Positions 3,514-54,126 of a DNA stretch of 64,000 bases are shown one piece after another (position 1 is the first letter of the stretch; the number at the start of each line of letters is the position of its first letter). The stretch lies in assembly GCA_900544335.1 (NCBI GenBank), contig UQUS01000001.1:6853-70852 (forward strand), read 5' to 3'. The translations under genes were made by a program, and so were the position numbers. The notes under the pieces were generated by a model. It did no database searches. It worked only from the letters and a program-made list of their open reading frames with translations, and was not told where the DNA came from. This stretch comes from an uncultured Sutterella sp. (GTDB lineage: Bacteria; Pseudomonadota; Gammaproteobacteria; Burkholderiales; Burkholderiaceae_F).

Positions 3514-4740
3514 ATGGCGACACAAAAGCCCACTTCGGATTTGTCCTTTGAGCCGACATTTGCTCATGTCGCCATCTTGGGCTTTACCTGCTCGCTCGGA
3601 CCGTTTGCCACGAACGGAATTGTTCCGGCTTTTCATGCGATTTCAGAGACTTTCGGCATGTCCCTTGCGGATATGCAGCAGATGCTGACGGTGTATCTGG
3701 TGGCGCTGGCTATCGGATCGCTTTTGGTCGGGAGCCTTTCCGATGCCCTCGGTCGCAAGCGCGTGCTAGCCACCGGCTTGGTGCTTTGTGCCGCCTCATC
3801 CATCGGGGCGGTGTATTCAGATTCGTTAGCGACGATGAATGTCTGGCGATTCTTGCAGGGGCTCGGGGCGTGCACCGGACAGGTCATTACACAAGCGATG
3901 GTGCGAGATAGGTGGAGCGGCCTGCCGGCCGCGCGTGCCATGAGCATTATCGGAATGCTCTTTAGCGTGGCTCCGGCCGTTGCCCCGATTGTCGGCGGGT
4001 GGCTGGTCGTGCGCATGGGCTGGCAGTCAACGTTTTGGTTCCTGACGGCGTACTCCCTGAGCATTTGGGCGATTACGGTTTTCGTTTTAAAGGAGACGCT
4101 CCCGCAGGAAAAGCGATTGCACTTTAATCTTTGGGCGCTTCTTTTAAGTTACGGGACGTGCCTGAAAAATCCGGCTTACACAGCCGGCATCATCTCCAAC
4201 GGCTGTAGTTTCATGGGCATGATTTTGGTGGTCGCCGGCGGTGCGGACTTTGTGGTCAACGTGATGGGATTTGGCGTCGACGGCTTTGCTTGGCTTTCCA
4301 TTCCGCTTGTCGTGGCATCTGTCGCAGGCTCTTTTTTGGCTCCGCCTCTTGCGCAGCGTTTCGGCACTCGCAAGTTGGTTGTCGGGTCCGGTGTGCTCTT
4401 GATTCTTTTTGAGTTTGCGATGACCTATTGCATGCATGAGGCAAGCCCGGGGTATCTTGAAACGCTACTGATCGGATTTGTCTTTACTTTTATCGGCAAC
4501 CTTGTTCGGCCGGTCGTCATGACGATGAACTTGGATTACCACCCTCGGTGCCGGGGGCTGGCTGCCTCGATTCAGCAAGGTTTTCACACGCTCGGATTTA
4601 CCTTGAGTTCCGCTGTTTTCGCTCCGCTTTGTATCGGGCAGGCATGGAAGTACGCTCTCGCGATGGGCGTTTGCGCTGTCCTGGCGCTGCTTTTCTGGAT
4701 GATTGCTCTGCATTACCGCAAGGCGTACTTGCCGGCTTAA
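3514..4740 (+). CDS. MFS transporter, Bcr/CflA-like drug-resistance family
   Basis: 408 aa, 12 transmembrane segments, MFS motif GRKRVL after TM2. Confidence 0.8.
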   Translation: MATQKPTSDLSFEPTFAHVAILGFTCSLGPFATNGIVPAFHAISETFGMSLADMQQMLTVYLVALAIGSLLVGSLSDALGRKRVLATGLVLCAASSIGAVYSDSLATMNVWRFLQGLGACTGQVITQAMVRDRWSGLPAARAMSIIGMLFSVAPAVAPIVGGWLVVRMGWQSTFWFLTAYSLSIWAITVFVLKETLPQEKRLHFNLWALLLSYGTCLKNPAYTAGIISNGCSFMGMILVVAGGADFVVNVMGFGVDGFAWLSIPLVVASVAGSFLAPPLAQRFGTRKLVVGSGVLLILFEFAMTYCMHEASPGYLETLLIGFVFTFIGNLVRPVVMTMNLDYHPRCRGLAASIQQGFHTLGFTLSSAVFAPLCIGQAWKYALAMGVCAVLALLFWMIALHYRKAYLPA

Positions 4741-5372
4741 GAGCGCGACGGACCCCGAAGGATCAGACCGACACCGAAAGCGACGATCAAGAACAAAAAG
4801 AGAACGGAAAAAACGGCACAGCATTGAGCCATATTGAGCCACTGCTCGGTCGGAATCAGATACCAGCCGCCTGCCTCGTTATATAGGTCAATCCAAAACG
4901 ACTGCATGTTCGAAAGGACGGCATCGGGGGGAACAACGGGCGTGTCGATGCCGCATTCGCCCGAAGCGGCAAACCAATCCGGAAGCCACACGTCAAGCGG
5001 CAGCCCCAAAGGGTAGTGCGTCGTTGTCGAACAACCCGTCAGACCGAAGAGCGCATCGGAATCCGCGTCGTGCATGGCCGCGTGAATGCGTGCAAGGCGT
5101 AGCGAGCAAATAAGTCCGTACAGTGCCCCGTACAAGGAAAGCGCGATGCCAGGGACGGCAAACCACGGGGCCTTCGGATTGAGGGCGACAAGAAGAGCAC
5201 CGAGTGCCACGAGAACGAAGGCAAAGCGAATGTAAACGCACTGTTCGCACGGCTCCATGAAAAGCCACTTTTGAAAGACGGCATGCGCGAAAACAACCAA
5301 GAAAACGGTAGCGCCCGCAAGAATAATCCAAGGCGTGCGTTTTGTCGCAAGAGTGCGAAGAGATAAGAGCAT
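4737..5372 (-). CDS. DsbB-family disulfide oxidoreductase (DsbI-like paralog)
   Basis: The CEQC motif at the end of TM1 (cf. DsbB CVLC) and a second Cys pair in the periplasmic loop. Start taken at MLLSL (5372), because the ORF-track start at 5504 would overlap the upstream DsbA-like gene. Confidence 0.7.
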   Translation of the reverse strand: MLLSLRTLATKRTPWIILAGATVFLVVFAHAVFQKWLFMEPCEQCVYIRFAFVLVALGALLVALNPKAPWFAVPGIALSLYGALYGLICSLRLARIHAAMHDADSDALFGLTGCSTTTHYPLGLPLDVWLPDWFAASGECGIDTPVVPPDAVLSNMQSFWIDLYNEAGGWYLIPTEQWLNMAQCCAVFSVLFLFLIVAFGVGLILRGPSRS

Positions 5373-5382
5373 CCAGTGTCCT

Positions 5383-6030
5383 TTAAGGTAAAGCCGACAA
5401 CTCCCGAATGATATTTCCGAAATCGGTCTTAGAGCGCGCGGCCGTGTTACGAACCAAAAATCGCCCGTTAACCACATACGCGGGAATGCCCTGAATGGCG
5501 GCAATGTCTTTGGACGGACGCCAAGCCTTAACGAGCGAGAGCACGTCGGAATCGGCTTTTCTTTTAAGGAAAAAGTCCTTTGTAAGACCTGTTGCGTCCG
5601 TGAGAGTTTTTAAAAAAGCGTCTTCACCGCCGGCCCAGCGCTCCTTTTGTTTCAGGTACGCAAAATAAAGAGCTTCTTTGGCTTGAGAAAAAAGACTGGC
5701 TTTGTCCGAAAGAGGGCGTCCGTTTTTCTCGTCTTCTCGCTCGCACAGTGCCAAGAATATGGCGGCCGTTTGTCCGTATTTGGCGCGGCTTTCCAGGAAA
5801 ACGGGGACAAAACGCAGACCGAGATTCGGGAGAATCTCTTCACAAAGCCACGGGTCGATGCTCTTGTCGTAGCGATAGCAAAACGGGCAATCGTACGAGA
5901 AAATTTTAATCAGCGTTTTTGCAGCATTTTCAAACGGGCTTTCCAGGGAAACGTAGGTCGCTTCCTTGGCCCAAAGGGGAAAGGACAAGCCGGCTAAGGC
6001 TGCCAGTCCGAGAGAGCGCCGAGAAATCAT
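5383..6030 (-). CDS. DsbA-family thiol:disulfide oxidoreductase (DsbL-like; CPFC active site)
   Basis: Signal peptide MISRRSLGLAALAGLSFPLWA and a thioredoxin-fold CPFC motif. Start at 6030 with a GGAGAAGGA RBS. Confidence 0.75.
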   Translation of the reverse strand: MISRRSLGLAALAGLSFPLWAKEATYVSLESPFENAAKTLIKIFSYDCPFCYRYDKSIDPWLCEEILPNLGLRFVPVFLESRAKYGQTAAIFLALCEREDEKNGRPLSDKASLFSQAKEALYFAYLKQKERWAGGEDAFLKTLTDATGLTKDFFLKRKADSDVLSLVKAWRPSKDIAAIQGIPAYVVNGRFLVRNTAARSKTDFGNIIRELSALP

Positions 6031-6147
6031 AAAACATCCTTCTCCAGTATCGTTTAGGCCACGCAATCATAGCTTTTTCTATCGCCCGGAAAAGCAAATT
6101 TGCTAGAGTGTTGCCCGTTGTTTGTTTTGTGGCTAGGAGAAATAGCG

Positions 6148-7440
6148 ATGACCGTACGGGTGCTGACCGGTATTAACACAACGGGAACGTTGCATTTAGG
6201 GAATTACTGCGGAGCGATTCGCCCCTGCATTCAGGCGTCTCACAAGCCCGATGTGGAAAGCTTCTTTTTTATGGCGGACTTGCACGCCCTGATTAAGTGT
6301 CAGGATGCTGACCGCATTGAAAGAAGTCGCATGCAGATTGCCGCGAGCTGGCTTGCGGCGGGACTCGATCCCGACCACTGCACCTTTTATCGACAAAGCG
6401 ACATTCCGGAAATTCCGGTTTTGAACTGGCTTTTAAATTGCGTCTGCGCCAAAGGGCTGATGAATCGGGCGCATGCGTACAAGGCGTGCGTTGAGGCCAA
6501 TGCCGCCGCCGAGCTCGACCCCGACGCCGGTGTCTCGATGGGCCTATTTTGCTATCCGGTTTTGATGGCTGCCGACATCCTGATGTTTAATGCCAATCTT
6601 GTCCCTGTCGGTCGCGATCAGATTCAGCACTTGGAGATGGCCCGCGATATCGCCACGCGCTTTAATAACTTGTACGGGCGCGGAAAAGACTTCTTTGTGC
6701 TTCCGTACGAACAAATCGACGAGCACGTGTCCATCTTGCCGGGCTTAGACGGACGCAAGATGAGTAAGAGTTACAACAACGTCATTCCGCTTTTTGAGGG
6801 CGGACGTGTTGCGCTTGAAGAAGCCATCAGCCGCGTTGTGACCGACAGTCGCTTGCCCGGAGAACCCAAAGACCCGGATAGCACGTCGCTTACGCAAATC
6901 TATGATGCCTTTGCCACGGACCAAGAAAAAGCCCTGTTCCGCGAGGAACTTCGCGACGGTCTCGGTTGGGGCGAGGCCAAGAAACGGCTGGTTGCCCAAA
7001 TCGAAAAGGAAATCGGACCGATGCGAGAAAAGTATGCGTTCTTTATGGCGCATCCTCAGGAGCTTGAAGATATCTTGCAGGCTGGCGCGAAAAAGGCGCG
7101 TCGCTTGGCAACGCCCTTCCTCGTAACGCTCCGTGAGGCTGTGGGTTTGCGGCAATTTCATGCCGTCGGAGCCACCCGAAAAGGCAAAGTTTTACCTAAG
7201 AAAAAGGCCACGGCTGCCATTAAGCAATATCGAGGAGAGGATGGGAAGTTCTATTTCAAACTGACCGATTCCGCCGGATGTGTGTTACTGACCTCGCATC
7301 CCTTTGAGAGCGGCAAAGAGGCCGGAATGGCTGTCGGGCAACTCAAACAAGGGAAACTGCAGGACGTTCTGACGCACGTTGTATTGGCCGACGGCGTGAC
7401 CGAAGAGGCGGTGCGACAGGCCTTAGCGGAACTTGCCTAA
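6148..7440 (+). CDS. trpS: Tryptophan--tRNA ligase with a C-terminal YegP/DUF1508-like extension
   Basis: TGxLHLGNY (HIGH-type) and KMSKS motifs. About 330 aa of synthetase is followed by ~90 aa ending KFYFKLTDSAGCVLLTSHPFESGKEAGMAVGQLKQ, which resembles the YegP family. The start is ATG 6148 with an AGGAGA RBS, not the ORF-track start at 6100. Confidence 0.9.
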   Translation: MTVRVLTGINTTGTLHLGNYCGAIRPCIQASHKPDVESFFFMADLHALIKCQDADRIERSRMQIAASWLAAGLDPDHCTFYRQSDIPEIPVLNWLLNCVCAKGLMNRAHAYKACVEANAAAELDPDAGVSMGLFCYPVLMAADILMFNANLVPVGRDQIQHLEMARDIATRFNNLYGRGKDFFVLPYEQIDEHVSILPGLDGRKMSKSYNNVIPLFEGGRVALEEAISRVVTDSRLPGEPKDPDSTSLTQIYDAFATDQEKALFREELRDGLGWGEAKKRLVAQIEKEIGPMREKYAFFMAHPQELEDILQAGAKKARRLATPFLVTLREAVGLRQFHAVGATRKGKVLPKKKATAAIKQYRGEDGKFYFKLTDSAGCVLLTSHPFESGKEAGMAVGQLKQGKLQDVLTHVVLADGVTEEAVRQALAELA

Positions 7441-7467
7441 GAAAGACCGAGCAGAATCGGTTGCGCG

Positions 7468-7506
7468 GCCGAAGGTCCCAGTTTCGGAGCCTTCGGCTGA
7501 TTTTTA
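7468..7506 (+). terminator. rho-independent terminator after trpS
   Basis: gccgaagg / ccttcggc is a perfect 8-bp stem (7468-75 / 7490-97) followed by tgaTTTTTa. Confidence 0.6.
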
Positions 7507-7581
7507 TCAGAGGTCCTAGGGAAAATCCCAGAGGGTAATGTGCGGCGCGCAAGACAAATTCTTGCTACAGTACGACGTGTT

Positions 7582-7656
7582 ATGACAAACATCGAGAACA
7601 AATTTTTCGGCTGGTGGCTCTGGCGGTACGATCCGTCAGCGCTTGTTGCTGTTTAA
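7582..7656 (+). CDS. trp leader peptide (MTNIENKFFGWWLWRYDPSALVAV), Trp-codon attenuation sensor
   Basis: 24 codons with three Trp in four positions (UGG UGG CUC UGG); followed directly by the antiterminator and terminator elements. Confidence 0.55.
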   Translation: MTNIENKFFGWWLWRYDPSALVAV

Positions 7657-7682
7657 TCAAAACGTTCTCGTTTTAAAGGCTG

Positions 7683-7716
7683 ACGGATTGAAAGGTGTGC
7701 TTTCAGTCCGTTTTTT
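7683..7716 (+). terminator. attenuator terminator of the trp leader (upstream of trpB2)
   Basis: A 12-bp stem acggattgaaag / ctttcagtccgt (one G:U pair) with a GTGTG loop, then TTTTT. Leader segment 7631-7640 (atccgtcagc) is exactly complementary to 7679-7688 (gctgacggat), so an antiterminator would sequester the terminator 5' arm. Confidence 0.6.
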
Positions 7717-7752
7717 ATTGCCTGAAATCTTTCCTCAATCAAGGAGACAACC

Positions 7753-9123
7753 ATGGAAAAGATGCCCTACAAGACCTACCTGGAAGAAAATGAGATTCCG
7801 GCAGCGTGGTACAACCTGCGGGCAGATATGAAAAATAAGCCCGCTCCGATGCTCAATCCGGCGACGTTAAAGCCCGTGACAGCAGCGGATTTAACGCCGG
7901 TTTTCTGCGAGGAACTCGTTTCTCAGGAGTTAAACGTCACAGATCCGTGGATTGATATTCCCGGGGAGGTCCTCGATTTTTATAAGATGTACCGCCCGTC
8001 TCCCTTGATTCGTGCGTATTGCTTGGAAAAGGTTCTGGGAACGCCGGCGAAGATTTTCTACAAATTCGAAGGTCAAAACACGTCGGGAAGCCACAAACTT
8101 AACTCGGCGATTGCTCAGGCTTATTACGCCAAAAAGCAGGGACTTAAAGGCGTGACGACCGAAACCGGTGCCGGACAGTGGGGTACGGCTCTTTCGATGG
8201 CCTGTGCGTACTTGGGGCTTGACTGCAACGTCTTCATGGTCAAGTGCTCGTATGAACAAAAGCCGCAACGCAAAGAAGTGATGCGTACGTTCGGCGCCAC
8301 CGTCACGCCTTCGCCTTCAAATACGACGAAAATCGGGCGCAAGATGCTTGAGGAATTCCCGGGCACGACCGGCAGTCTCGGTTGCGCGATTTCCGAGGCT
8401 GTCGAGTCCGCCGTCAGTCGCCCCGGGTATCGGTATGTGCTCGGGTCGGTCCTTTCGCAGGTGTTACTGCACCAAACGGTTGTCGGTCTTGAGTCGCAGG
8501 CTGCGTTGGCTCGCTACGGTTTGACTCCGGACATCATCATCGGATGCGCCGGGGGCGGATCGAATCTCGGGGGACTCATTAGCCCCTTCGTCGGTGACAA
8601 GATCAAAGGAAAGCTCGATAGCCGCATCATCGCCGTGGAACCTGCCAGCTGCCCGAGTCTGACACGCGGACGCTACGCCTATGACTTTTGCGATACGGGT
8701 CGCGTGTGCCCGCTCCAGAAGATGTATACGCTCGGATCGAGTTTTATTCCGTCGGCCAATCACGCCGGAGGACTGCGTTACCACGGTATGAGCGCGATTA
8801 TTTCGCAGCTGTATGCAGACGGGCTGATTGAAGCGCGAGCGGTCGAACAGACCTCGGTTTTTGCCGCTGCGGAAAAATTTGCCCGCTGCGAAGGGATTCT
8901 CCCGGCTCCCGAAAGCAGTCACGCCATTAAGGTTGCAATTGACGAGGCCTTACGGTGCAAAGAAACCGGCCAAGAGAAGGTCATTCTATTCTGCCTGACG
9001 GGAACCGGGTACTTTGACATGTCGGCCTACCAACGCTTTAACGACGGTACGATGAGCGACACGATTCCGACCGATGCCGAGCTTAAGGCCAGTTTTGACA
9101 AAATGCCCAAAGTGAACCTGTAA
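7753..9123 (+). CDS. trpB: Tryptophan synthase beta chain, TrpB2-type (stand-alone, long form)
   Basis: 456 aa; PLP-lysine motif GSHKLNSAI; long N-terminal extension typical of TrpB2; AAGGAG RBS. No trpA is adjacent. Confidence 0.85.
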   Translation: MEKMPYKTYLEENEIPAAWYNLRADMKNKPAPMLNPATLKPVTAADLTPVFCEELVSQELNVTDPWIDIPGEVLDFYKMYRPSPLIRAYCLEKVLGTPAKIFYKFEGQNTSGSHKLNSAIAQAYYAKKQGLKGVTTETGAGQWGTALSMACAYLGLDCNVFMVKCSYEQKPQRKEVMRTFGATVTPSPSNTTKIGRKMLEEFPGTTGSLGCAISEAVESAVSRPGYRYVLGSVLSQVLLHQTVVGLESQAALARYGLTPDIIIGCAGGGSNLGGLISPFVGDKIKGKLDSRIIAVEPASCPSLTRGRYAYDFCDTGRVCPLQKMYTLGSSFIPSANHAGGLRYHGMSAIISQLYADGLIEARAVEQTSVFAAAEKFARCEGILPAPESSHAIKVAIDEALRCKETGQEKVILFCLTGTGYFDMSAYQRFNDGTMSDTIPTDAELKASFDKMPKVNL

Positions 9124-9173
9124 GGCTTTTTTCAAGAGAGAGTGCGGCGCCGACTCCAAGGCGCCGTACTCAC

Positions 9174-10058
9174 TTACGCATCGCGTTGGCAAAGTTGCCG
9201 ATGCCGCACGACTGTCAGGACCTTTGCCTTAAAGGCCTTAGCTAAGTGTTCGGCGATATAGACGCTTCGATGTTGTCCGCCCGTACAACCGATTGCCACC
9301 GTCAGGTAATGGCGGTTTTGGCTTTCGTACGAAGGGAGCCACTTGTCGATAAACGCCGTGATGTCCGAGAGCATGTCTTGGACTTGCGACTGGGAGTCGA
9401 GATAATTAATCACGGGTTTATCTAGGCCCGTAAGCGGTCGCAAGGCTTCGTCGTAAAACGGGTTCGGGAGGTTGCGCACATCGAAAACCAAATCGGCGGC
9501 GACGGGAATGCCCTTTTTAAACGCAAAGCTTTCAAAGTCAAGCGTCATCGAAGAGGGCGGTATATCGGCAAACTCCGTGACCCAACGCCGCAGTGTGTTC
9601 GGTAAAACGCGCGTTGTATCAATGATGTGAGCTTGTTCGGCAATCGGCGACAAGAGGTCCCGTTCCAGATGAATGGCTTCCGAAAGCGTTCGTCCGCTTT
9701 GACTTTCGGGACGAATCGAGAGCGGGTGCCGGCGGCGTGTTTCGGAAAAACGCTTCACGAGTTCGGTGTTGGAGGCCGTCAAAAACAGGATGCGCACATC
9801 GATTTTTCGAGCGCGCAGTGCCGCCAGACAATCCGTAAATTGCTCTGAGTTTGTCAGCCCCCGCGCATCGACGGCAACGGCAATGCGATCGATGCCGCGG
9901 CTGTGTAACTTTTCCAGAACGGGCAGTAAGAAATCAAGCGGCAGGTTATCCAAGCAATAGTAGCCGCTATCTTCCAATTGGCGAATGGCGACGGATTTAC
10001 CCGATCCCGAAAGCCCCGTCACAATGACAACGCGCAACTCGGACGAGGTGTTTTCCAT
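9174..10058 (-). CDS. rapZ: RNase adapter protein RapZ (YhbJ)
   Basis: P-loop VVIVTGLSGSGKS near the N-terminus; start at MENTSS (10058) with an AAGGAG RBS; 4 bp after ptsN. Confidence 0.9.
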   Translation of the reverse strand: MENTSSELRVVIVTGLSGSGKSVAIRQLEDSGYYCLDNLPLDFLLPVLEKLHSRGIDRIAVAVDARGLTNSEQFTDCLAALRARKIDVRILFLTASNTELVKRFSETRRRHPLSIRPESQSGRTLSEAIHLERDLLSPIAEQAHIIDTTRVLPNTLRRWVTEFADIPPSSMTLDFESFAFKKGIPVAADLVFDVRNLPNPFYDEALRPLTGLDKPVINYLDSQSQVQDMLSDITAFIDKWLPSYESQNRHYLTVAIGCTGGQHRSVYIAEHLAKAFKAKVLTVVRHRQLCQRDA

Positions 10059-10062
10059 GAGG

Positions 10063-10545
10063 TTACTCCTTTCCTGCAGCATCGTCAGAGGGCTCCCAAG
10101 CCGTAATGATTTCCAAAGCCTGCTTGGCCGAGGTCGCTGTCATGAGGGTACTTCGAGCGGTTTTATCGCGCAAAAAACCGGCTACATCCGACAAAATGGC
10201 CAGATAGGCGTCCGGGTTACTTTCCGGAATGGCCACGGCAAAAAATAGTTGCGCCGTCGTCTGTCCCGGTCCGTCGTAATCAATCGGTTGCTTGGTTCTC
10301 ACTAGGCACAACCCGGGGTCGACGATTCCGTTAATACGGGCATGAGGAATACCGGCACGACACCCCAAACCCGTCGGACCGAGTTTTTCTCGTGCAATCA
10401 GGGCATCGAAAACACTTTGTGCCGGCACTCCGGAAGAGACGGCCAGAATTCGGGAAACCTCTTCGAAAAGGCGTTTTCGGCTCAAGACATCTAAGTCAAG
10501 CAGGATGTTTTCACTCGGATTTAATAACGGAGCAATGTGATTCAT
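10063..10545 (-). CDS. ptsN: PTS IIA-like nitrogen regulatory protein PtsN (EIIA-Ntr)
   Basis: 160 aa PTS EIIA type-2 fold with a conserved His region; canonical position after rpoN. Confidence 0.85.
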   Translation of the reverse strand: MNHIAPLLNPSENILLDLDVLSRKRLFEEVSRILAVSSGVPAQSVFDALIAREKLGPTGLGCRAGIPHARINGIVDPGLCLVRTKQPIDYDGPGQTTAQLFFAVAIPESNPDAYLAILSDVAGFLRDKTARSTLMTATSAKQALEIITAWEPSDDAAGKE

Positions 10546-15567: not shown

Positions 15568-15699
15568 AGGAAAAACTCCGTTAATCAGTGCCGTCATTGT
15601 AGCGAAAGGCCGCCTTATCTCGGAGTCTGTCTCGGGCAAGATGAAGGAAAATCTATGGAATTTCTCCGATGCTTACAAGACAGACACGGGGCTTGTTAT

Positions 15700-15894
15700 T
15701 TAAAGGGAATACCGTAACTTCATTTCGTTAAATTGGCTAAAAGGAATGATTTTTTCACTTTGCAATCGTCCGACGACGATGCCGGGATGGATACCGACCT
15801 GCATTGCAAAATCTTCAATGGCTCTTTTTGAGTAATTCTTTGCAGACAGGAATGCCTCATAGTCATTTAAGGGAATGAGAGCATTTTTCGCCAT
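15700..15894 (-). CDS. small hypothetical protein (64 aa) with a helix-turn-helix-like segment; possibly a remnant
   Basis: The ATG ORF has no recognisable family; AIEDFAMQVGIHPGIVVGRLQ is HTH-like. It sits in a decayed region next to an ABC-transporter pseudogene. Confidence 0.3.
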   Translation of the reverse strand: MAKNALIPLNDYEAFLSAKNYSKRAIEDFAMQVGIHPGIVVGRLQSEKIIPFSQFNEMKLRYSL

Positions 15895-15963
15895 AGCTTC
15901 GGTGGCATCCTGCTCCCCTAGCGAGGTTTGATTAAGAACAGTTCCCGGGATGAGCGCGGTGTG

Positions 15964-16330
15964 CTACAAGGAGCAACCGATACTTTTTCGTCGCATGCGG
16001 TCAGAGAGGGTAAATGTGTTGATGCCGCCGTCGATGACCTGTCCTTCTTTCGGCTCGTACGAGTTTGAAAACGGTGTTTTTCCGACACCGGAGCGTCCGA
16101 CCAGAGTCACGTGTTCCCCGGCTTTAATTGTCAGTGAAAAATCACGAAGGACTGGGTTTTCGTCACACCCGAAGGTCACATGGGAAAAACGATGTCACTT
16201 TCTCGATTGATCTCTTTGCAGCCGGACCATCGCTGACGGTGGTTTGTCCTGGCGGAGAATATCTGCAAGGCCCTGAGCCAGTTGCCTTTCGAACCAGGAT
16301 GGCAGCGCCAGCCTGATGTTGTTGATGAGG
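15964..16330 (-). pseudogene. ABC exporter (MsbA-like) ATPase-domain fragment, frameshifted and truncated
   Basis: The peptide ...ENPVLRDFSLTIKAGEHVTLVGRSGVGKT shows a Walker A then degenerates and stops. An upstream out-of-frame stretch ...FERQLAQGLADILRQDKPP resembles the TMD-NBD linker. No TMD and no Q-loop, signature or Walker B remain. Confidence 0.5.
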
Positions 16331-16813
16331 CCGGAAATCGTGACACGGAAAAGCGGCTTACTCTCGGCGAAAAAAATAGGAGCGAATCGTCTGGGGATTA
16401 AAAGAGAGAGCCGAGGTTTCAGGTAAGACTGTCCCTTAAACGGAGGTCTTAAAAAACATAACGAATTTGTTGATCTTGGGCCGGGTCCCGGCACATGAAC
16501 GCTGTGACGCGTCCGGCTCGAAAGTAGTAAAAATTGTAAGGTCTTTGCTCCGGGGTTACGAAGAGCGTAGCGTCTGAAAACCCGAAGTTTCAACCAATCG
16601 GGGGCGTTGCCTGTCGCTCGCAAGACTCTTCGATGCGTTGTATCGAAGAAACAAAAGAAGTCATTTTTCGCGCGAAAAGCGATTCTTGTAACAAATTGTT
16701 GCAAACGAAAGGCAAACCTCTATAAGATACAAAACAGATGGCGACCTGTTGCGTCTTGGCAGTGTTTGTCGCTGTTTTTTTTATTAGTTTTACTTTTTAA
16801 CGGAAACTCCATC

Positions 16814-21510: not shown

Positions 21511-22424
21511 GATGATTCCTTCGGGCAAACCGACTGTTTTTTCCCTGTCAGGCAAACCCAGTCTTCTTGTTGTTTCCACACCGAGAGTTTGACACCGATT
21601 GCCTCATAGGTGTTGATGATGTCTTGTGCTTGATGCGCCAAAACTCCCGAGAGCGTCAGATGCCCGTTTTCGGAAAGATAGCCGACAAGGGCCGGCGCTA
21701 AGACTTTTAAAGGATTGGCCAAGATGTTGGCAATGACAATGTCAAAGGTTCGGTGTTCCAGCGCTTCAGGCAGGGAAAAGGCGGCGTCAACGGCGTTGAT
21801 TTTGGTGTTGTAACAGGCCGCTTCCACGGCTTGCGGATCGATATCGGTGCCGACAACAGGGGTGGCACCGAGTTTAGCGGCGGCAATGGCCAAAATGCCG
21901 GTTCCGCAACCGTAGTCCAAAACCGAAAGGCCCGAACGCACGTTTTCATCGAGCCACTTTAAGCAAAGATGCGTTGTCGGGTGTGCTCCCGTGCCGAAGG
22001 CAACCCCGGGATCCAGTCGGATGTTGACGGCTTTGGGGTCGGGAATTTCACTCCAGCTCGGAACAATCCACAGACGGTCGCTCACTTTGGTCGGTCCGAA
22101 TTGCGATTGGGTTAACTTGACCCAATCGGTCTCAGGGACCGGAACAATCGATTCAATCGGCTCGGGCGCTTGCCCGATTGCGTTATAGGCTGCCTTCACA
22201 AGAAGAGCCGGATTACTCTTTTCGTCAATGAGGAACTTAAGGCGTGAGCGCTTCCAAGCGCAGGTCGTCGGCTCTAATCCCGGCTCCCCGTAAAGCGGCT
22301 CTTCGTCGGCGTTATCGGCATCGGCATCCTCGAGCGTGATGCTCAGAGCGCCGCTATCGATTAACGCATCACCGAGGGATTCGGCTTGGTTTTGTGCAAC
22401 AAGAAGCGTTACTTCACGTAGCAT
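21498..22424 (-). CDS. prmA: Ribosomal protein L11 methyltransferase PrmA
   Basis: SAM motif [15 protein letters not shown]; position after accBC. Confidence 0.9.
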
Positions 22425-27028: not shown

Positions 27029-29008
27029 ATGCAGCTTTTTTTTGAAGAGGACGGAAACTACAAATCCGGCGTGATTCTCAAACATGAGGGCAATGCCTAT
27101 CAGGTTGAGCTTGCGAGCGGAAAACGTACGAAAGTCAAAGGAGGTCACGTTCTCTTTGAATTCGATTACAGCGGGTCGGACTTTATGGAGGCGGCTAAAA
27201 AGACCGCCTCCGAAATCGACCCTTCGTTTCTCTGGGAGGCCGCTGCCGATCAGGAAATCGACTATACGACACTGGCGACCGAGTACTTCGGATCGCCGAC
27301 ACCTGTTGAGCGTGCGGCAGTCTTTCTTGCCTTGCAAGGCAATCCCGTCTACTTTTATAAAAAAGGTCGGGGTGTGTTTAAACCGGCTCCGCGCGAGACA
27401 CTCGAGCGGGCTTTGCAGGCAATCGAGAGGCGTAAGAAACTTGAAGAGCACCGAAAGCAGATGACAAGCGACATGGTTGCAGGCATCCTTCCCGAGGTGA
27501 TTCGTACGCAGGCCTATGCGCTCTTACTACGCCCGGACAAGAACTCCATGGAGTGGAAGGCTTTAAACGATGCCGCGAGTGTGGAGCGGATTTCGCCCTT
27601 GGCGCTCCTGCTCAAACTCGGAGCCATCACAAGCCCCTACGCCTGGCATGTTCAGGGCTTTTATTTCGAGCATTTCCCACAAGGTCAGGGATTTGCAAAA
27701 AATCTTCCGGCACCGAAGGCCTACGCCGGGGAATTGCCGCTTGCCGATGTTCAGGCCTTTTCCATCGACGATTCGTCGACAACGGAAATCGATGATGCAA
27801 CGAGCATGACCGATATCGGAAACGGACGACTGAAACTTGGGATTCACATCGCGGCGCCGGCACTTTTAATCGAAAGAGACTCGCCGCTCGATCGGGTTGC
27901 GCGAGAGCGCCTTTCGACGGTCTACGGTCCGGGAATTAAAACCACGATGCTTCCGACCGATTGGATCGAAGCGGCAAGTTTAAAAGAGGGAGCAAGTGCC
28001 CCGTGTGTTTCGCTTTATGCAGTTTTGGATGCCGAAACGATGACGGTTTTATCGACGGAGACCTGTGTGGAACGGGTTCCGATCCAGGCCAACCTCCGGT
28101 ACGACACGTTCGAGCAGAACGTGACCGAGGAGGCGATTTTGTCCGAAACACTGAGCATTCCGTATGCGCGTCAAATCAGTCTTTTGTGGCGTTTTGCCAA
28201 GATGCGTCAGAAAGTGCGCGAGGATGTTCGCGGGCGCCCCGAGATGCCGCCTCGCCCGGAGTGGTATTTTGTTTTAGAGGGCGAAGGAGAAAGCGCGCGT
28301 GCACAAGTTCGTTCTCGCATGCGCGGCGCGCCGATTGATTTGGTCGTCTCCGAGTTGATGATTTTTGCGAACGAAATGTGGGGCTTGTGGCTCGAAGAGC
28401 ACAACACGGCCGGTATTTACCGTAGCCAGCGCATGGGTCGCGTCAAGATGAGTACAACGCCCGGTCCCCATGACGGCTTGGGGGTGACCGCCTATGCGTG
28501 GTCGACATCTCCTTTGCGCCGGTATGTCGATTTGATGAACCAGCGACAGATTGTCCGCGTTGCGATGGGACAGTCGCCGGCCTATCAGCCCAAAGACACC
28601 GATTTATTTACGGCAGTGACAGCTTTTGAGTCCGCCTATGAGGCCTACAACGACTTTCAGCGTCGTATGGAGCGGTACTGGAGCCTTCGGTGGATTGAGC
28701 AGGAAGGAAAAACGCAAGTCACAGCCCTCGTTGTCAAGGACGAATTGGTGCGTATCGAGGGTTTGCCGATGATGCAGCGCATTCCGGGACTGCCCGAATT
28801 AGAACGCGGACGGCGGATTTTGTTGCAGGTCCTCGGATGCGATTACATCGAACTGGTGCTCGAAACGCGGTTGGTGCAAGTGCTCGATGAAACGGAAACA
28901 CTGCAAGAAGACGAGGTCGAATCCATGACCGAGGCCTCCGAAATCAGTGATGCGCCCGAAACCGGGAATGTGGAAGCCGACGAAAAGAACGGGGAGGACT
29001 TAAAGTGA
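27029..29008 (+). CDS. rnb: RNB-family 3'-5' exoribonuclease (RNase II-like)
   Basis: 659 aa; RNB catalytic motif FSIDDSSTTEIDDA. Confidence 0.8.
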   Translation: MQLFFEEDGNYKSGVILKHEGNAYQVELASGKRTKVKGGHVLFEFDYSGSDFMEAAKKTASEIDPSFLWEAAADQEIDYTTLATEYFGSPTPVERAAVFLALQGNPVYFYKKGRGVFKPAPRETLERALQAIERRKKLEEHRKQMTSDMVAGILPEVIRTQAYALLLRPDKNSMEWKALNDAASVERISPLALLLKLGAITSPYAWHVQGFYFEHFPQGQGFAKNLPAPKAYAGELPLADVQAFSIDDSSTTEIDDATSMTDIGNGRLKLGIHIAAPALLIERDSPLDRVARERLSTVYGPGIKTTMLPTDWIEAASLKEGASAPCVSLYAVLDAETMTVLSTETCVERVPIQANLRYDTFEQNVTEEAILSETLSIPYARQISLLWRFAKMRQKVREDVRGRPEMPPRPEWYFVLEGEGESARAQVRSRMRGAPIDLVVSELMIFANEMWGLWLEEHNTAGIYRSQRMGRVKMSTTPGPHDGLGVTAYAWSTSPLRRYVDLMNQRQIVRVAMGQSPAYQPKDTDLFTAVTAFESAYEAYNDFQRRMERYWSLRWIEQEGKTQVTALVVKDELVRIEGLPMMQRIPGLPELERGRRILLQVLGCDYIELVLETRLVQVLDETETLQEDEVESMTEASEISDAPETGNVEADEKNGEDLK

Positions 29009-29814
29009 GCCGACTTTTTTATGTCATCGGAAATCCGATTGAGCATTCGCTTTCGCCGGTCATTCACGCTGCCTTTGCACAAAAAACCGGTTTAGATATT
29101 TGCTACGAAAAGCGCCTATTTGACGTTAAGGATTTTGCCGGTCAGTTGCGCCGACTTTTGGCCTCCGAGCCCGTGTGCGGCGCCAATGTGACGGTCCCCT
29201 TTAAAAGAGAGGCCTATCAGGTTTGTACGACGATAAGCGAGAGAGCACGCCTCGCGGGAGCTGTTAATACGCTTTCCTTTCAAAAGGACGGAGGCGTTTT
29301 CGGTGACAATACGGACGGAATCGGCTTTGTAAACGATTTAAAGCGCCTTTACGGGGGAAAGCTTTCCGAGGCACGAGTCCTTTTGCTCGGAGCAGGCGGT
29401 GCGGCGCGGGGTCTTTTGGCTGTTCTTCCGACCTGTGTTCGCGCTGTGACGGTGGCTAATCGCACCGAGGCTAAGGCCTTTGACCTTGCCGCGGCGTTCG
29501 GTGTTTGCGCCAGTTCACTGGAAGATGCAAAAAACGGCACTTGGGAAATTGTTGTCAATGCAACGAGCGCCAGTTTGTCCGGTGCGGTTCCTGCCGTCGA
29601 TCCGGGGGTTTTTGCCCGCTCTCAGCTCTGCTACGACCTTATGTATGCGCGTACGGCAACGCCTTTTATGCAAGCGGCCCAAAGCGCCGGATGCCCGAAC
29701 GTGTACGACGGACTCGGAATGCTCGTGGAGCAAGCGGCGGAAAGCTTTCAACTCTGGAACGAAATCCGTCCGCCCGTCGAGTCGGTTCTTGCGGCGTTGC
29801 GCGCGCCGCATTAA
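29005..29814 (+). CDS. aroE: Shikimate dehydrogenase AroE
   Basis: MSRLFYVIGNPIEHSLSP is the shikimate-binding N-terminus; Rossmann GAGGAARG. Confidence 0.9.
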   Translation: MSRLFYVIGNPIEHSLSPVIHAAFAQKTGLDICYEKRLFDVKDFAGQLRRLLASEPVCGANVTVPFKREAYQVCTTISERARLAGAVNTLSFQKDGGVFGDNTDGIGFVNDLKRLYGGKLSEARVLLLGAGGAARGLLAVLPTCVRAVTVANRTEAKAFDLAAAFGVCASSLEDAKNGTWEIVVNATSASLSGAVPAVDPGVFARSQLCYDLMYARTATPFMQAAQSAGCPNVYDGLGMLVEQAAESFQLWNEIRPPVESVLAALRAPH

Positions 29815-39445: not shown

Positions 39446-40093
39446 TTAGACCTCTTCAAATTTGTCGGGGGAGTTGAATCGCCCTTCGGGATCAATCCAA
39501 CCTAAAAGGGTTTGCGTCAGTTCCTCGGAACCCTCTTTTTTCAGACCGGAAAAAAGTTGTACCGAAACGTGATCTCCTGTTTTCTCAGCCCGAGCGCGAG
39601 CGATTCGAAGGGTATTGGCACGTTCACTGCGATTGAGTTTGTCGCATTTATTTAAAAGCCACAGTTGCCGAATGTGAGTTTTGCCGGAGAAAAAATCAAT
39701 GAGCCAGTCATCGGCCGGCATGAACGGGCGCCTGGCGTCCATCACAAGCACAATGCCGACAAGCGAGGGCCTCTTGTCCAGATAGCCTCCGATTAAATCG
39801 GCCCACTGCGCCCGTGTGTCGGGAGAAGCCTTCGAGTACCCGTATCCGGGAAGATCCACAAGAAAACCCACGTCGTCTTCTTTTTGTGTGAGGCGGAAAA
39901 AGTTAATGAGTTGCGTGCGGCCCGGCGTCTTGGAGGCAAACGCCAATTGGCCTTGCCGCGTCAGAACGTTAATCGTCGTGGATTTGCCGGCATTGGAACG
40001 CCCGGCAAAGGCAATTTCTGGTAGACCCGGGGGCGGGAGCTGATCGAGCTTGGCAGCCGAGATAACAAAACGGGCTGAATCAAATAATTTCAC
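39446..40093 (-). CDS. engB: Ribosome biogenesis GTP-binding protein EngB (YihA/YsxC)
   Basis: G1 motif [13 protein letters not shown] start at 40093 overlaps the mnmA TGA stop as GTGA, with AAGGAA 8 nt upstream. The ORF-track N-terminal extension (to 40258) lies inside mnmA. Confidence 0.85.
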
Positions 40094-48414: not shown

Positions 48415-50409
48415 ATGGTCGCTCAAATTTGCCCCGTTTCTCGCACGGTTATCGCTCTTACGATGGGGTGCTTAACCGGTTTTTCAACAGTCTACGCGGC
48501 CGCTGAGCAAGATCTCGGCCAGGTTTTAGTGACAGCCGAGAGTGAGACTTCGCCTGCTTTGCCGGAAACCTCCTCTCTCGGAACACAAAGTAATCGCGTC
48601 AGTCGCGAGCAAATCGAGAACCAAGCCGCAACCGATATCAATCATGCGTTAACACTTATTCCCGGTGTTATGACGCGCTCTCAAACCATGATGGGCGGTC
48701 AGACAAGCCACGGCATTTATGTCCGAGGGCGGGGTGCAAGCCACCCGGGTTCGGACGTGGCAATTTACTTTGACGGCGTCCCGCGTGCCGGGGCGATTTA
48801 CGGACAGACGCTCTTTGACGGCATCAGCCTCGGAAGCGTTGAGGCTATCGAGGTTTTCAAGAGTCCGCAGCCCGCGAATTTCGGAAGCGGCTATGCGGCC
48901 GTCAATATGGAGCCGCGCAAAATCAAGCGCGCCGGTCAGGAAGTTGAAATTTCGGTCGCAGGCGGCTCGCACGAGACAGTCAATGAAGAGGTCTTTGCCG
49001 GCTATAAAAACGATCGGTTTGACGTCAGTGCCGTGCAAAACTGGGCCAGTACCGCAGGACATGTCAACCACTCGCGTGCGCAGCAGCAAAACTATTACCT
49101 CAATACCGGCTGGCAATTAACGCCGAATGAGGAAGTACGGTTTTTAGCCAACAGAACGCTCGGACAGACGCTGCAGCCCGACAAGAGGGGAGGCGCTCGA
49201 TCGGTTGACCGCTATGACACGGATACCACATTTTTTACCTTAACGCTCAATAGCCGCCGTGAGAGTTCGGAGGGGTTTCTCAAGACCTATTACAACGACA
49301 CGCAATATGACCTACTCGGCGAGCGCAAGAAAATCAGTGGTACCGTTACTAAGCTTGCTGATTCCAGACAGAGTATGAAACTGTATGGTGTCCGGGGTAA
49401 GTACAGCTGGTCTTTTGCCGAGGCGACGCGCCTGACAGTCGGCATGGATTTAGATCGTACCGAAACAACAAATAGGCAGCGTATGCAGGAAAGCGGCGCG
49501 ACGACCTACTGGGACTTTCCGACGATGACGCTCTTTTCTCCGTACGCGAGCGTCTCGTACGACTGGCAAGTCGGGGATGTTGTTGTAACGCCCTCGGTCG
49601 GACTGCGTTCTTATACGCACAGTGAATTTAAAGACGTCGTTGCCCCGCAGGCAGGTCTTGTCGTCTCCTCCGGTCTTTGGCGGTGGAATGCAAACTACGC
49701 ACGCGGCGTGAATTACCCGACTCCGGTTGCCCTGCAAGGGCTCGTTGTGCGTGGGAGGTCTCACTCGTCACAGGCGTGGGCCTCTCTTAAGCCAGAAGTT
49801 GTCGACCACTATGAGACGGGAATCGGACTGATGGTCAATCCGGAAAATGCCGTCAATCTGACCGCCTTTTACGACCGAGGACGCGATCGCTTTCGCGTTA
49901 ACATGAGTCCGAACGTGCCTCCTACCTGGAACGATCCCGTGGGGCGCTACAAGGTCGCCGGTCTTGAGGCAAGTATCCAAAAGTCCTTCGGGTCCGATGT
50001 CAAAACCTTTGCCGCCGTGACCTACATGAACGTGCGCGCAACGGATAGTGCAGGAAAGCTTTCCAAGCACCTTGCGTACTCGCCCAAGTGGCTTATTCAG
50101 GGTGGCGCGACATGGAACATCACGCACGCTTGGAAGTTATATGCCGATGCGATGTATGTTTCCGATCTTTGGAGCGGAATGAATGCTCGTCCGTCCCAGA
50201 ATTTCGGCTATTCAACGGATAAGAAACTGAAAGATTTCCTATTGGTTAATGTCAAACTTTCGCGCACATTCGAGCCGCCTCAGGGGTTGCCGAAGAATGC
50301 GGAAGTGTTTGTTTCCGTGAATAATCTGCTCAATCGGGACTATGCATGGGATGCCGGCTACCCGATGCCCGGAATTACGGCATTTGCCGGAGTGAAATTC
50401 GGTTTTTAG
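48415..50409 (+). CDS. TonB-dependent outer-membrane receptor
   Basis: Signal peptide, plug-domain motifs, and a C-terminal F after the last beta strand (GVKFGF). The TonB box was not identified by eye. Confidence 0.85.
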   Translation: MVAQICPVSRTVIALTMGCLTGFSTVYAAAEQDLGQVLVTAESETSPALPETSSLGTQSNRVSREQIENQAATDINHALTLIPGVMTRSQTMMGGQTSHGIYVRGRGASHPGSDVAIYFDGVPRAGAIYGQTLFDGISLGSVEAIEVFKSPQPANFGSGYAAVNMEPRKIKRAGQEVEISVAGGSHETVNEEVFAGYKNDRFDVSAVQNWASTAGHVNHSRAQQQNYYLNTGWQLTPNEEVRFLANRTLGQTLQPDKRGGARSVDRYDTDTTFFTLTLNSRRESSEGFLKTYYNDTQYDLLGERKKISGTVTKLADSRQSMKLYGVRGKYSWSFAEATRLTVGMDLDRTETTNRQRMQESGATTYWDFPTMTLFSPYASVSYDWQVGDVVVTPSVGLRSYTHSEFKDVVAPQAGLVVSSGLWRWNANYARGVNYPTPVALQGLVVRGRSHSSQAWASLKPEVVDHYETGIGLMVNPENAVNLTAFYDRGRDRFRVNMSPNVPPTWNDPVGRYKVAGLEASIQKSFGSDVKTFAAVTYMNVRATDSAGKLSKHLAYSPKWLIQGGATWNITHAWKLYADAMYVSDLWSGMNARPSQNFGYSTDKKLKDFLLVNVKLSRTFEPPQGLPKNAEVFVSVNNLLNRDYAWDAGYPMPGITAFAGVKFGF

Positions 50410-50422
50410 GTGATTTGTCAAA

Positions 50423-51049
50423 ATGGAAAGCTTGACACAAGAAGAACAGCTCAAGTCCGATGCGCGTCGTGCGTTTTTCGACGCGCATGCCCACGGGTGG
50501 GAAGAGCGCGGTTATCCGGCTGACGTTCGGGTGCGTCTCGAGGCACTTGTCGAGTGCTTCGGGATTGAGTCCGGCGAGAAGATTCTCGATGTCGGGTGCG
50601 GCGAGGGTGTGCTCGTGCCGTACCTACTTGATCGACTCGGTCCGACCGGCTTTGTCGTCGAGCTGGATAACTCGCTAGAAATGCTCAAAGGAGCTGCCAA
50701 AAAATCAGCTCGGCAAATTCAGTGTGTCTGGTCGGCTGTTGAGACACTGCCGCTAGTTGATGAAGATTTTGACCGAGTGATTTGTTTTGCCTCGTTTCCG
50801 CACTTTGCCAATCCCCTCAAAGCATTAAAGCAAATTCATCGCGTTTTAAAACCGGCCGGAAGTCTTGTAATCGCCCATCTTTTAAGTCGCGAAGAAATTG
50901 CCCGACACCACGCCAAAAGTACGGTGGTTCTCGGCGATGAACTTCCCGGAGAGGCGGCGATGCGGGTCCTTATGACGCAGACGGGCTTTTGCGTCAAGCG
51001 TCTTGAGGATAGGCCGGGGCGGTATTTATTGGTTGCTACCAAGGAGTAA
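50423..51049 (+). CDS. class I SAM-dependent methyltransferase
   Basis: Motif I ILDVGCGEG plus post-I acidic and motif II regions; 208 aa. Confidence 0.8.
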   Translation: MESLTQEEQLKSDARRAFFDAHAHGWEERGYPADVRVRLEALVECFGIESGEKILDVGCGEGVLVPYLLDRLGPTGFVVELDNSLEMLKGAAKKSARQIQCVWSAVETLPLVDEDFDRVICFASFPHFANPLKALKQIHRVLKPAGSLVIAHLLSREEIARHHAKSTVVLGDELPGEAAMRVLMTQTGFCVKRLEDRPGRYLLVATKE

Positions 51050-51052
51050 GTC

Positions 51053-51880
51053 GTGATTTCAAGACGCGCACTGATGCTTGGAGGAGCCTGTCTTTTCGTG
51101 ACCGAAGGCGCTCTGAGCAGCTTTTTTGAACGCTCGTATGTTTTGGGATCGACCCTTTTAGAAGATATCGTTTCGGACTTGACGGCAGGGCGCGCCAAGA
51201 CGCGGCTTTTAATCAGCGGGTCGGCTTGCCCCGGGCACACCGATGTCAAAGCGTCCGACTTGGTGTTTGCAGCCAATGCTCAAGGAATTTACGTTCACCC
51301 GAGGCAAATGACGCTACCGAGCTTAACGCAATTATTTGCAGCTAAAGAGCAGTTGCGCACAAGAACGCACGCAATCGCTATCTCGGGAAGCTGGCTTATC
51401 CCCGATGTGCAGATTCAAGCGAGTCGCGCCGTTGCAAAGACTCTGGTGCAAGGCGAAACCTCCGATTTTTCCAACGCGGTTTACGGGCGCCTTCAAAAGC
51501 GCCTTGAGCGCATCCAAGCTTTTTCCGATGGCCTTACTCCCGTGCGTGCGCGTTTTCACGGAAAACCCGTTGTATCGGCGCTCATGCAAAAAGACTTTGT
51601 CTCCTGGTGTGGCTTTTCCGTCGCGGCAACGTTCGGAGGCGCCGAATCGATGAATCCGAAGACGCTTGGCCAGACGATTGCTCTCGCACGCAAGCATCGC
51701 GCCATCGGTGTTGTAGAAAATCTTCAGAGCGGGCAAGAGGCGGGACTGCCGATTGCCGAGGAACTGAAAATCCCGCGGGCGATTCTTTCCAATTTCCCCG
51801 AATCGGACGACAATGTTCCCGATTACTTTTCTTTAGTGCGAGAAAACATCAAGCAGTTGCTCCTTTTAACGGGAAATTAA
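51053..51880 (+). CDS. metal ABC transporter substrate-binding protein (ZnuA/TroA cluster A-I-like, divergent)
   Basis: Signal peptide; weak similarity to ZnuA around CPGHTDVKASDL (cf. SPHDYSLRPSDV); operon context with ABC-3 permease and ATPase genes. Confidence 0.6.
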   Translation: MISRRALMLGGACLFVTEGALSSFFERSYVLGSTLLEDIVSDLTAGRAKTRLLISGSACPGHTDVKASDLVFAANAQGIYVHPRQMTLPSLTQLFAAKEQLRTRTHAIAISGSWLIPDVQIQASRAVAKTLVQGETSDFSNAVYGRLQKRLERIQAFSDGLTPVRARFHGKPVVSALMQKDFVSWCGFSVAATFGGAESMNPKTLGQTIALARKHRAIGVVENLQSGQEAGLPIAEELKIPRAILSNFPESDDNVPDYFSLVRENIKQLLLLTGN

Positions 51881-51884
51881 ATCC

Positions 51885-52661: not shown

Positions 52662-52672
52662 GGACAGAGCCG

Positions 52673-54114: not shown

Positions 54115-54126
54115 ACGGAGATTGGT

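Follow-up and report, generated by a model that had tools for sequence, protein, structure and literature searches.

The 312-nt gap between trpS and trpB2 in the 64-kb stretch of DNA studied here (contig UQUS01000001.1 of an uncultured Sutterella sp.; hereafter, the window) very probably holds a ribosome-mediated leader-peptide attenuator, which would couple the expression of trpB2 to the supply of charged tRNA-Trp. The element, which we examined within that gap, comprises a short open reading frame (ORF) with clustered Trp codons and four RNA segments, numbered 1 to 4, with alternative 1:2, 2:3 and 3:4 pairings; the 3:4 hairpin is an intrinsic terminator. The distance from its U run to the start codon of trpB2 is 36 nt, and the next gene downstream, rapZ, is convergent with trpB2, so that trpB2 would be the only gene under control. 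The coordinates of all features are collected in Table 1.

Leader ORF and alternative RNA structures

The leader ORF opens with an ATG at 7582 and ends with a TAA at 7654-7656. Its Trp codons at 7612-7614, 7615-7617 and 7621-7623 specify W11, W12 and W14, and the first-pass annotation of this DNA was right in describing a 24-codon ORF with three Trp codons in four positions. It had also placed the ORF between the trpS terminator and trpB2. We recovered the trpS hairpin in the fold of 7441-7520, with 10+2 bp at 7467-7498 and a U run after it; this terminator-like structure separates the transcription of trpS from the leader.

Taken alone, the Trp-codon cluster is weak evidence, since the pattern is not rare: three UGG in four codons occur four times in the window, compared with ~ 0.75 occurrences expected. 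The other three clusters are out of frame and lie within genes, and clustered Trp codons in an intergenic short ORF are unique to this leader in the 64 kb. Chance is untenable as an explanation because this is the sole intergenic ORF of its kind, because the ORF, the helices and the U run follow each other in the correct order and at the correct spacing, and because the arrangement is conserved elsewhere.

The unconstrained minimum free energy (MFE) fold of 7560-7760 contained both the 1:2 hairpin and the terminator. The core of the 1:2 hairpin is formed by CUGGCGG (7620-7626) and CCGUCAG (7633-7639), its 5′ arm includes the Trp codons, and its energy alone is -21.4 kcal/mol. Segment 2 can alternatively pair with segment 3. 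The complementarity noticed earlier between AUCCGUCAGC (7631-7640) and GCUGACGGAU (7679-7688) is exact, and the helix can be extended to 12 bp (7629-7640 with 7679-7690), with a duplex energy of -20.0 kcal/mol. This 2:3 helix takes nine of the 13 bases of the terminator 5′ arm. The terminator was originally reported as a 12-bp stem (7683-7694/7700-7711) followed by Us; the terminator itself stands, and its stem actually has 13 bp (Table 1), with a 5-nt loop (7695-7699), a run of six U (7711-7716) and an energy of -18.0 kcal/mol. Compared in isolation, the 2:3 hairpin (-23.9 kcal/mol) is stronger than 3:4 (-18.0 kcal/mol).

The balance between these structures depended on the modeled position of the ribosome. 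With no ribosome, the combination of the 1:2 hairpin and the terminator (-47.4 kcal/mol) was favored by 8.7 kcal/mol over the forced antiterminator (-38.7 kcal/mol). Stalling was imitated by masking the RNA as if the first or second UGG were in the A site; the antiterminator (-26.0 to -27.5 kcal/mol) and the terminator (-28.2 kcal/mol) then became nearly equal. When the nascent RNA extended only to the terminator loop, the 12-bp 2:3 helix was the MFE fold with the stalled ribosome in place. With the ribosome at the stop codon, the terminator alone remained. Folding in alternative states, which had been suggested as a check, returned the terminator state as well as the antiterminator state. In the window, the first UGG and segment 2 are 17-19 nt apart, with the stop codon downstream of segment 2.

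Conservation in related genomes

The nearest locus in the species collection is L001, from Duodenibacillus sp. (Sutterellaceae), with a TrpB2 that is 89% identical. We found further loci via TrpS homologues (72-80% identical), which served as a vertically inherited handle, and we scanned metagenomes with a degenerate DNA pattern encoding FFGWWLWR. The scan gave 38 matches, six of them true clade members. The remaining 32 were chance matches within longer ORFs (32 to 466 or more codons in the 14 that were inspected), which means that the leader peptide is not shared with other leaders. In total, the whole arrangement was present in ten distinct leader sequences from genomes and metagenomes of a Duodenibacillus-like clade; the search for a WW-containing micro-ORF upstream of trpB2 in other genomes, another check proposed with the first-pass annotation, was thus positive. 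The taxonomic labels of contigs from metagenome-assembled genomes may be unreliable.

The leader ORF exists in two forms. L084, L001, L083 and L125 encode 15-residue peptides (MRLIENKFFGWWLWR, MIFIEKNFFGWWLWR and MTFIEKNFFGWWLWR) with the consensus M..IExxFFGWWLWR and a TAA directly after the Arg codon (7422-7424 in L084, 3869-3871 in L001 and 8172-8174 in L083). The window, together with L082, L091, L097, L099, L101 and L102, has TAC or TAT at this position (TAC 7627-7629 in the window), followed by nine extra codons across segment 2 and a TAA between segments 2 and 3. We read the TAA of the 15-residue forms as the ancestral stop, lost in the sub-lineage of the window. The differences GAG/GAA, AAC/AAT and TTC/TTT within the ORF are synonymous third-position changes, and the ATG is invariant, which suggests that the ORF is decoded.

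The pairing potential was preserved as well. Across seven representative sequences, none of the 31 consensus pairs (1:2 and 3:4) was broken, and five showed one-sided changes that keep the pairing, namely G-C to G-U or A-U to G-U, with a single A-U to G-U change in the terminator stem. A 9-bp core of the 2:3 helix (7632-7640 with 7679-7687) was invariant in all seven. The sequence varies freely in both hairpin loops, between segments 2 and 3, ahead of the ATG and downstream of the U run.

We rejected L081 (= L121) as an independent divergent relative (TrpB2 84% identical), because its ENA contig is chimeric. Within its trpB2 (622-1992), bases 1-450 are ~ 93-100% identical to the window, and the remainder is ~ 52-71% identical. 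Downstream of this trpB2 lie glyA and a gene of the IreB family, which we take to be of Firmicute type. The contig is either an assembly artefact or a recombinant.

Initiation signals

Upstream of the leader ATG, the pattern T-T-G-n-T-A-n-A-n-T is invariant and at a constant distance from the ATG in all variants, and its flanks differ. The motif, TTGCTACAGT in the window, reads as a candidate extended -10 promoter (TGnTAnnnT). Its position would predict a transcription start 2-5 nt before the ATG, so that the leader mRNA would be nearly leaderless. In L001, L083 and L125, which belong to one sub-lineage, trpS and the leader are separated by a gene in the opposite orientation, and the leader must have its own promoter there because of this intervening gene. 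The gene (L001 3064-3555, L083 7382-7789 and L125 6381-6791, all on the minus strand) encodes 135-163 residues with no Pfam match, and is not present in the window or in L084.

Two further candidate signals were discarded. A resemblance to a TrpR operator (ACTAG/GTAC-like) before the leader ATG was not conserved among the variants. A 6-bp hairpin of 7730-7735 (UUUCCU) with 7742-7747 (AGGAGA), which could hide the Shine-Dalgarno sequence of trpB2, lacks its complementary stretch in L084, L001 and L083 and is probably non-functional as a second, translational layer of control.

Proposed mechanism and alternative explanations

The TGnTAnAnT motif would probably serve as the promoter, with transcription starting just before the leader ATG. 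When tryptophan is plentiful, the ribosome would pass UGG UGG CUC UGG and, in the lineage of the window, cross segment 2 to reach the stop at 7654; in the 15-codon relatives it would stop 5 nt before segment 2, leaving segment 2 covered in both forms. Segment 3 would then pair with segment 4, the terminator would form, and the transcript would end at ~ 7716. If the leader were untranslated, the 1:2 hairpin would sequester segment 2, likewise leading to termination. When tryptophan is scarce, the ribosome would stall when its A site reaches the first or second UGG, covering segment 1 and freeing 7629-7640. These nucleotides would pair with 7679-7690 once the latter are made and hold nine of the 13 bases of the terminator 5′ arm, and RNA polymerase would enter trpB2. 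TrpB2 would form tryptophan from serine or O-phosphoserine and indole, presumably gut indole. With the ancestral stop lost, the ribosome would physically cross segment 2, which should make termination, if anything, more secure. In this scheme, the promoter, the translation of the ORF, the response to tryptophan and the physiological substrate are what we infer from the elements, pairing energies, geometry and conservation computed here.

We must also consider the observations that speak against such an attenuator. No relevant Rfam family, RF00513 (Trp_leader) included, was matched in 5500-10500 with the permissive threshold of E ≤ 10, or over the entire window when the gathering score was applied. 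A sigma-70 scan that required a -35 hexamer found no promoter, and a Shine-Dalgarno sequence before the leader ATG is missing in four of the five variants; for these reasons, the initiation of transcription and translation of the leader is putative. The third UGG is too near segment 2 for antitermination, and a ribosome at that codon would cover part of segment 2. Moreover, the fold of the full-length RNA with a stalled ribosome can combine a 6-bp 2:3 helix with a 10-bp truncated terminator, which still has a G and six U after it. Because of this compromise fold, antitermination must be kinetic and could be leaky. The first-pass annotation called the antiterminator and the terminator mutually exclusive; their overlap and the alternative folds hold, but on the full-length RNA the exclusivity is thermodynamically only partial. 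Finally, there were no two-sided compensatory changes in the seven sequences, the clade being too shallow, and the structure is therefore supported by its conservation footprint, not by covariation.

If the ORF were fortuitous and untranslated, the hairpin and its U run would be a constitutive terminator or insulator that simply damps or insulates the transcription of trpB2; this reading would fit the missing Shine-Dalgarno sequence and the missing canonical promoter. As the Trp codons double as the 5′ arm of the 1:2 hairpin, their invariance could be structural, the GGCUGGUGGCUCUGGCGG stretch being kept for RNA structure and not for decoding. Nevertheless, the ATG and the frame are kept in every variant, the third-position changes upstream of the Trp codons are synonymous, and the stop codon is found at just two positions, each compatible with attenuation. 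An invariant 2:3 complementarity would be pointless in a simple terminator, the geometry equals that of E. coli trpL, and trpS already has a terminator of its own. We consider this explanation unlikely.

We think it quite unlikely, too, that besides attenuation in cis the terminated leader RNA (~ 135 nt) or its peptide also acts in trans. The precedent is rnTrpL and peTrpL of Sinorhizobium (PMC6614838, PMC7298713), and the stretch GCGCUUGUUGCUGUUU downstream of segment 2 is kept even in variants in which it does not code for peptide. However, this conserved stretch is accounted for by the extended 1:2 stem, the peptide length differs among lineages, and there is no pointer to any target. A TnaC-like nascent-peptide sensor, in which IExxFFGWWLWR would stall the ribosome on free tryptophan, implies regulation of the opposite sign and appears highly improbable. 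Although the conservation of the peptide reaches beyond the Trp codons (I-E-x-x-F-F-G), it could reflect how little the clade has diverged, and the C-terminal part and the stop position vary (15 vs 24 residues), unlike those of arrest peptides. Furthermore, the terminator is intrinsic and not Rho-dependent, the 1-2-3-4 layout is that of biosynthetic attenuators, and induction of a biosynthetic gene by excess tryptophan would be senseless.

The TrpB2 enzyme and its origin

On its profile matches, the gene controlled by the proposed tryptophan attenuator encodes a TrpB-like, pyridoxal phosphate-dependent enzyme, located outside a trp operon as in the ‘TrpB2_o’ situation (PMC1854888). The protein scored 673.6 bits with NF009057 (cutoff 366) and 589.9 bits with TIGR01415 (cutoff 518.85), and only 145 bits with the canonical TrpB model TIGR00263 (cutoff 392). 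These scores fit TrpB2 and not canonical TrpB, in agreement with the earlier description of a single TrpB2-type synthase gene right after trpS. TrpB2 enzymes are reported to prefer O-phosphoserine. No other trp gene was found among the ~ 38 of the 62 window ORFs that were checked; aroE is present at 29005-29814. The exact TrpB2 protein occurs on 382 contigs.

The leader and trpB2 form a module of ~ 1.65 kb between trpS and rapZ. In L126 (TrpS 73% identical), trpS and rapZ are convergent and ~ 50 nt apart (2931-2981), with no trpB2 between them. This empty site means that the module was either inserted in the clade of the window or deleted in L126. In more distant relatives, trpS lies in other contexts, without trpB2. 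The best TrpB2 matches outside the clade are 76-81% identical and come overwhelmingly from gut Clostridia, with a few from Bacteroidales or other bins. Given the empty site and these closest outside matches, the module appears to derive from the insertion of a gene that spreads horizontally, and trpB2 was probably acquired in this way. The GC content and the GC content at third codon positions of trpB2 equal those of its neighbors, so composition does not support a recent transfer. Either the transfer is not recent and the composition has been ameliorated, or its direction is not proven by composition.

Other probable tryptophan sensors in front of trpB2

Clostridial orthologues of trpB2 are preceded by a T-box in L007 (105 bits, specifier UGG), L014 (84 bits) and L056 (65 bits), and ~ 20 of the other 79 loci have a T-box sequence motif in the 500 nt upstream of the gene. 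L014 and L044 have a second T-box downstream of trpB2, ahead of further genes. At three other loci (L002, L049 and L072; two labeled Bacteroidales, one binned as Butyricicoccaceae), a stand-alone trpB2 orthologue follows a different short ORF with WWW and a strong intrinsic terminator. These candidate WWW leaders encode a peptide of the form MxxxxxWWW... and share a conserved GUCGUAGGAGG box; their GC-rich terminator reads GCCCyGCCGC..GCGACrGGGC with five U after it, and one compensatory pair is seen in it. No Rfam family matches them, Bacteroid-trp (RF01692) included.

The first-pass annotation noted that leaders of this kind before trpB2 do not appear to be commonly annotated. In the searchable literature we found no leader-peptide attenuator described for a TrpB2-type gene; given the WWW leaders, a Trp leader at trpB2 is not unique to this clade. 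By sequence, orthologous trpB2 genes appear to be run by three different devices that read the charging of tRNA-Trp. That orthologues carry T-boxes and WWW leaders adds weight to the view that cells need TrpB2 when they run short of tryptophan. We tentatively raise a broader scenario, which we regard as possible but doubtful, in which a gut Sutterellaceae lineage took up a clostridial-type trpB2 and put it under a newly recruited proteobacterial-style Trp attenuator with a nearly leaderless leader, and in which the same mobile gene came under three different tRNA-Trp-sensing leaders independently in three phyla.

The role of stand-alone TrpB2 has long been debated, with indole salvage, serine deaminase activity and others among the proposals (PMC1854888), and the enzyme has been discussed as an indole scavenger (PMC2700814, PMC1854888). 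PMC11085991 cites work on indole salvage by Thermococcus TrpB1/TrpB2. Leaders that read tRNA-Trp before trpB2 in several phyla would be evidence at the level of regulation that cells make TrpB2 when they lack tryptophan, as predicted by a role in tryptophan synthesis or indole salvage. An abundant group of uncultured or little-studied Sutterellaceae may then be an indole sink, switched by its own tryptophan status. Should the other genes of the trp pathway be missing, the organism would be a conditional consumer of microbiota indole via one gated enzyme. In terms of mechanism, the two stop positions, before or after segment 2, offer a natural pair of attenuator variants, and a leader ORF that lacks a Shine-Dalgarno sequence would be a test of how strictly the E. 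coli rules hold.

Neighboring genes and feature coordinates

TrpS of the window is a long form of 430-431 residues, covered over its full length by NCBIfam NF008923. The start is likely ATG 6148, as the profile begins at residue 17 of an ORF that opens at 6100. The C-terminal ~ 100 residues (7125-7440) extend beyond the Pfam tRNA-synt_1b domain and have no Pfam match; the TrpS homologue P0139 is annotated with PF07411. Genes for a DsbI-type protein (NF003304) and a DsbA-like oxidoreductase lie directly upstream of trpS on the minus strand (4737-6066), and this pair is syntenic with a major facilitator superfamily (MFS) transporter gene and tatBC in L083, L084 and L125. Downstream of trpB2, rapZ (9174-10082) is followed by ptsN and rpoN, also on the opposite strand.

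Elsewhere in the window, three regions of 640-970 nt each (15640-16606, 21580-22413 and 39446-40089) are without an ORF of at least 90 codons and without an Rfam or tRNA match. The region 48415-55169 has genes for a TonB-dependent receptor, a methyltransferase, a metal ATP-binding cassette (ABC) transporter, TonB and ExbB-/ExbD-like proteins; it is a putative metal-uptake locus, unrelated to the attenuator.

Table 1. Features of the trpS–trpB2 region of the window and of leaders in front of trpB2 orthologues at other loci
Feature	Position	Strand	Basis or remark
trpS, long-form tryptophan--tRNA ligase	6148..7440	+	NF008923, 651.6 bits (cutoff 597)
trpS terminator-like hairpin, then UGAUUUUU	7467..7505	+	fold of 7441-7520
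Candidate extended -10, TTGnTAnAnT (TTGCTACAGT)	7562..7571	+	ends 10 nt before the ATG of the leader
Leader peptide ORF, 24 codons, MTNIENKFFGWWLWRYDPSALVAV	7582..7656	+	ATG and frame kept in all variants
1:2 hairpin (anti-antiterminator or pause hairpin)	7608..7651	+	MFE, centroid and consensus folds
Regulatory codons UGG UGG CUC UGG	7612..7623	+	identical in all ten leader sequences
Segment 2, antiterminator 5′ strand, CGAUCCGUCAGC	7629..7640	+	pairs with 7679-7690
Segment 3, antiterminator 3′ strand, GCUGACGGAUUG	7679..7690	+	overlaps the terminator 5′ arm at 7682-7690
Intrinsic terminator (3:4)	7682..7716	+	13-bp stem, 7682-7694 with 7700-7712
trpB2 Shine-Dalgarno, AAGGAGA	7741..7747	+	AGGAGAC in every variant, at 5-6 nt from the ATG
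trpB2	7753..9123	+	profile matches NF009057, TIGR01415
T-boxes	L007 3695-3945; L014 3635-3897, 7253-7567; L056 3637-3916; L044 6146-6337		Rfam search
WWW leaders	L002 3689-3815; L049 3834-3960; L072 3750-3885		e.g. MNNNSWWWHSYYSDSRRRL

Comparison with known systems

The closest functional parallel is the E. coli trp leader (Rfam Trp_leader, RF00513). The E. coli trpL sequence that we used was checked (100% identical to 5,000+ genomes, annotated ‘Trp leader region’) and run through the same script. Like the element, it has adjacent UGG codons in segment 1, the 1:2, 2:3 and 3:4 alternatives and an intrinsic terminator. The geometry of the 15-codon relatives (L001) is the same as that of E. coli, with 20 nt from the first Trp codon to segment 2 and 5 nt from the stop to segment 2 in both. 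The differences are several. The two leaders show no similarity in sequence or by covariance model; the element controls one trpB2, whereas the E. coli leader controls trpEDCBA; the peptide of the element includes three Trp (WWLW), against two in E. coli; the element lacks a Shine-Dalgarno sequence and possibly has a very short 5′ untranslated region (UTR); the ORF of the window is nine codons longer and crosses segment 2; and the terminator stem is longer (13 bp), with only its lower nine bases contested. We therefore regard the element as one that would function like the E. coli trp attenuator and not as a homologous member of Trp_leader.

Other known ways of sensing tryptophan fit the window less well. 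It contains no T-box (RF00230), and the same search does detect T-boxes upstream of clostridial trpB2; TRAP-mediated attenuation of the Bacillus type uses nine to eleven (G/U)AG triplets with 2-3 nt between them, and 7441-7752 contains no run of four or more such triplets. The clostridial T-box also senses uncharged tRNA-Trp and acts by antitermination on an orthologous gene (76-81% identical protein), but its RNA binds the tRNA directly, without a leader peptide. The WWW leaders resemble the element in having a Trp-codon ORF and a terminator before trpB2, and are unrelated to it in sequence.

Among published leaders, PMC1262725 predicts attenuators of the classical type upstream of trp operons and of trpS or leuS, for example those of Streptomyces trpS2 and of Corynebacterium trp operons, and trpL precedes trpE(G) in Sinorhizobium (PMC6614838). 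These share with the element a Trp-codon peptide and a terminator/antiterminator in front of a single Trp gene or a small operon. They are alike in layout, with no apparent similarity in sequence, come from a different phylum, and none of them controls a TrpB2-type enzyme; the C. diphtheriae ‘trpB2A’ appears, in PMC1262725, to be simply a label for a second trpB copy. Mycobacterial leaderless polycysteine short ORFs, which are Cys-responsive attenuators (bioRxiv 10.1101/834739), likewise cluster the codons of the sensed residue and lack a Shine-Dalgarno sequence; the amino acid and the phylum differ. Moreover, the leaderless status of our element is only suspected, as the -10-like motif would predict a 5′ UTR of 2-5 nt and not a 5′-AUG. 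Taken together, the mechanism is not new: this would be a textbook attenuator on an unusual gene, with three modestly unusual traits, namely a leader ORF without a Shine-Dalgarno sequence, a stop codon at either of two positions and a probable rewiring after the gene was acquired horizontally.

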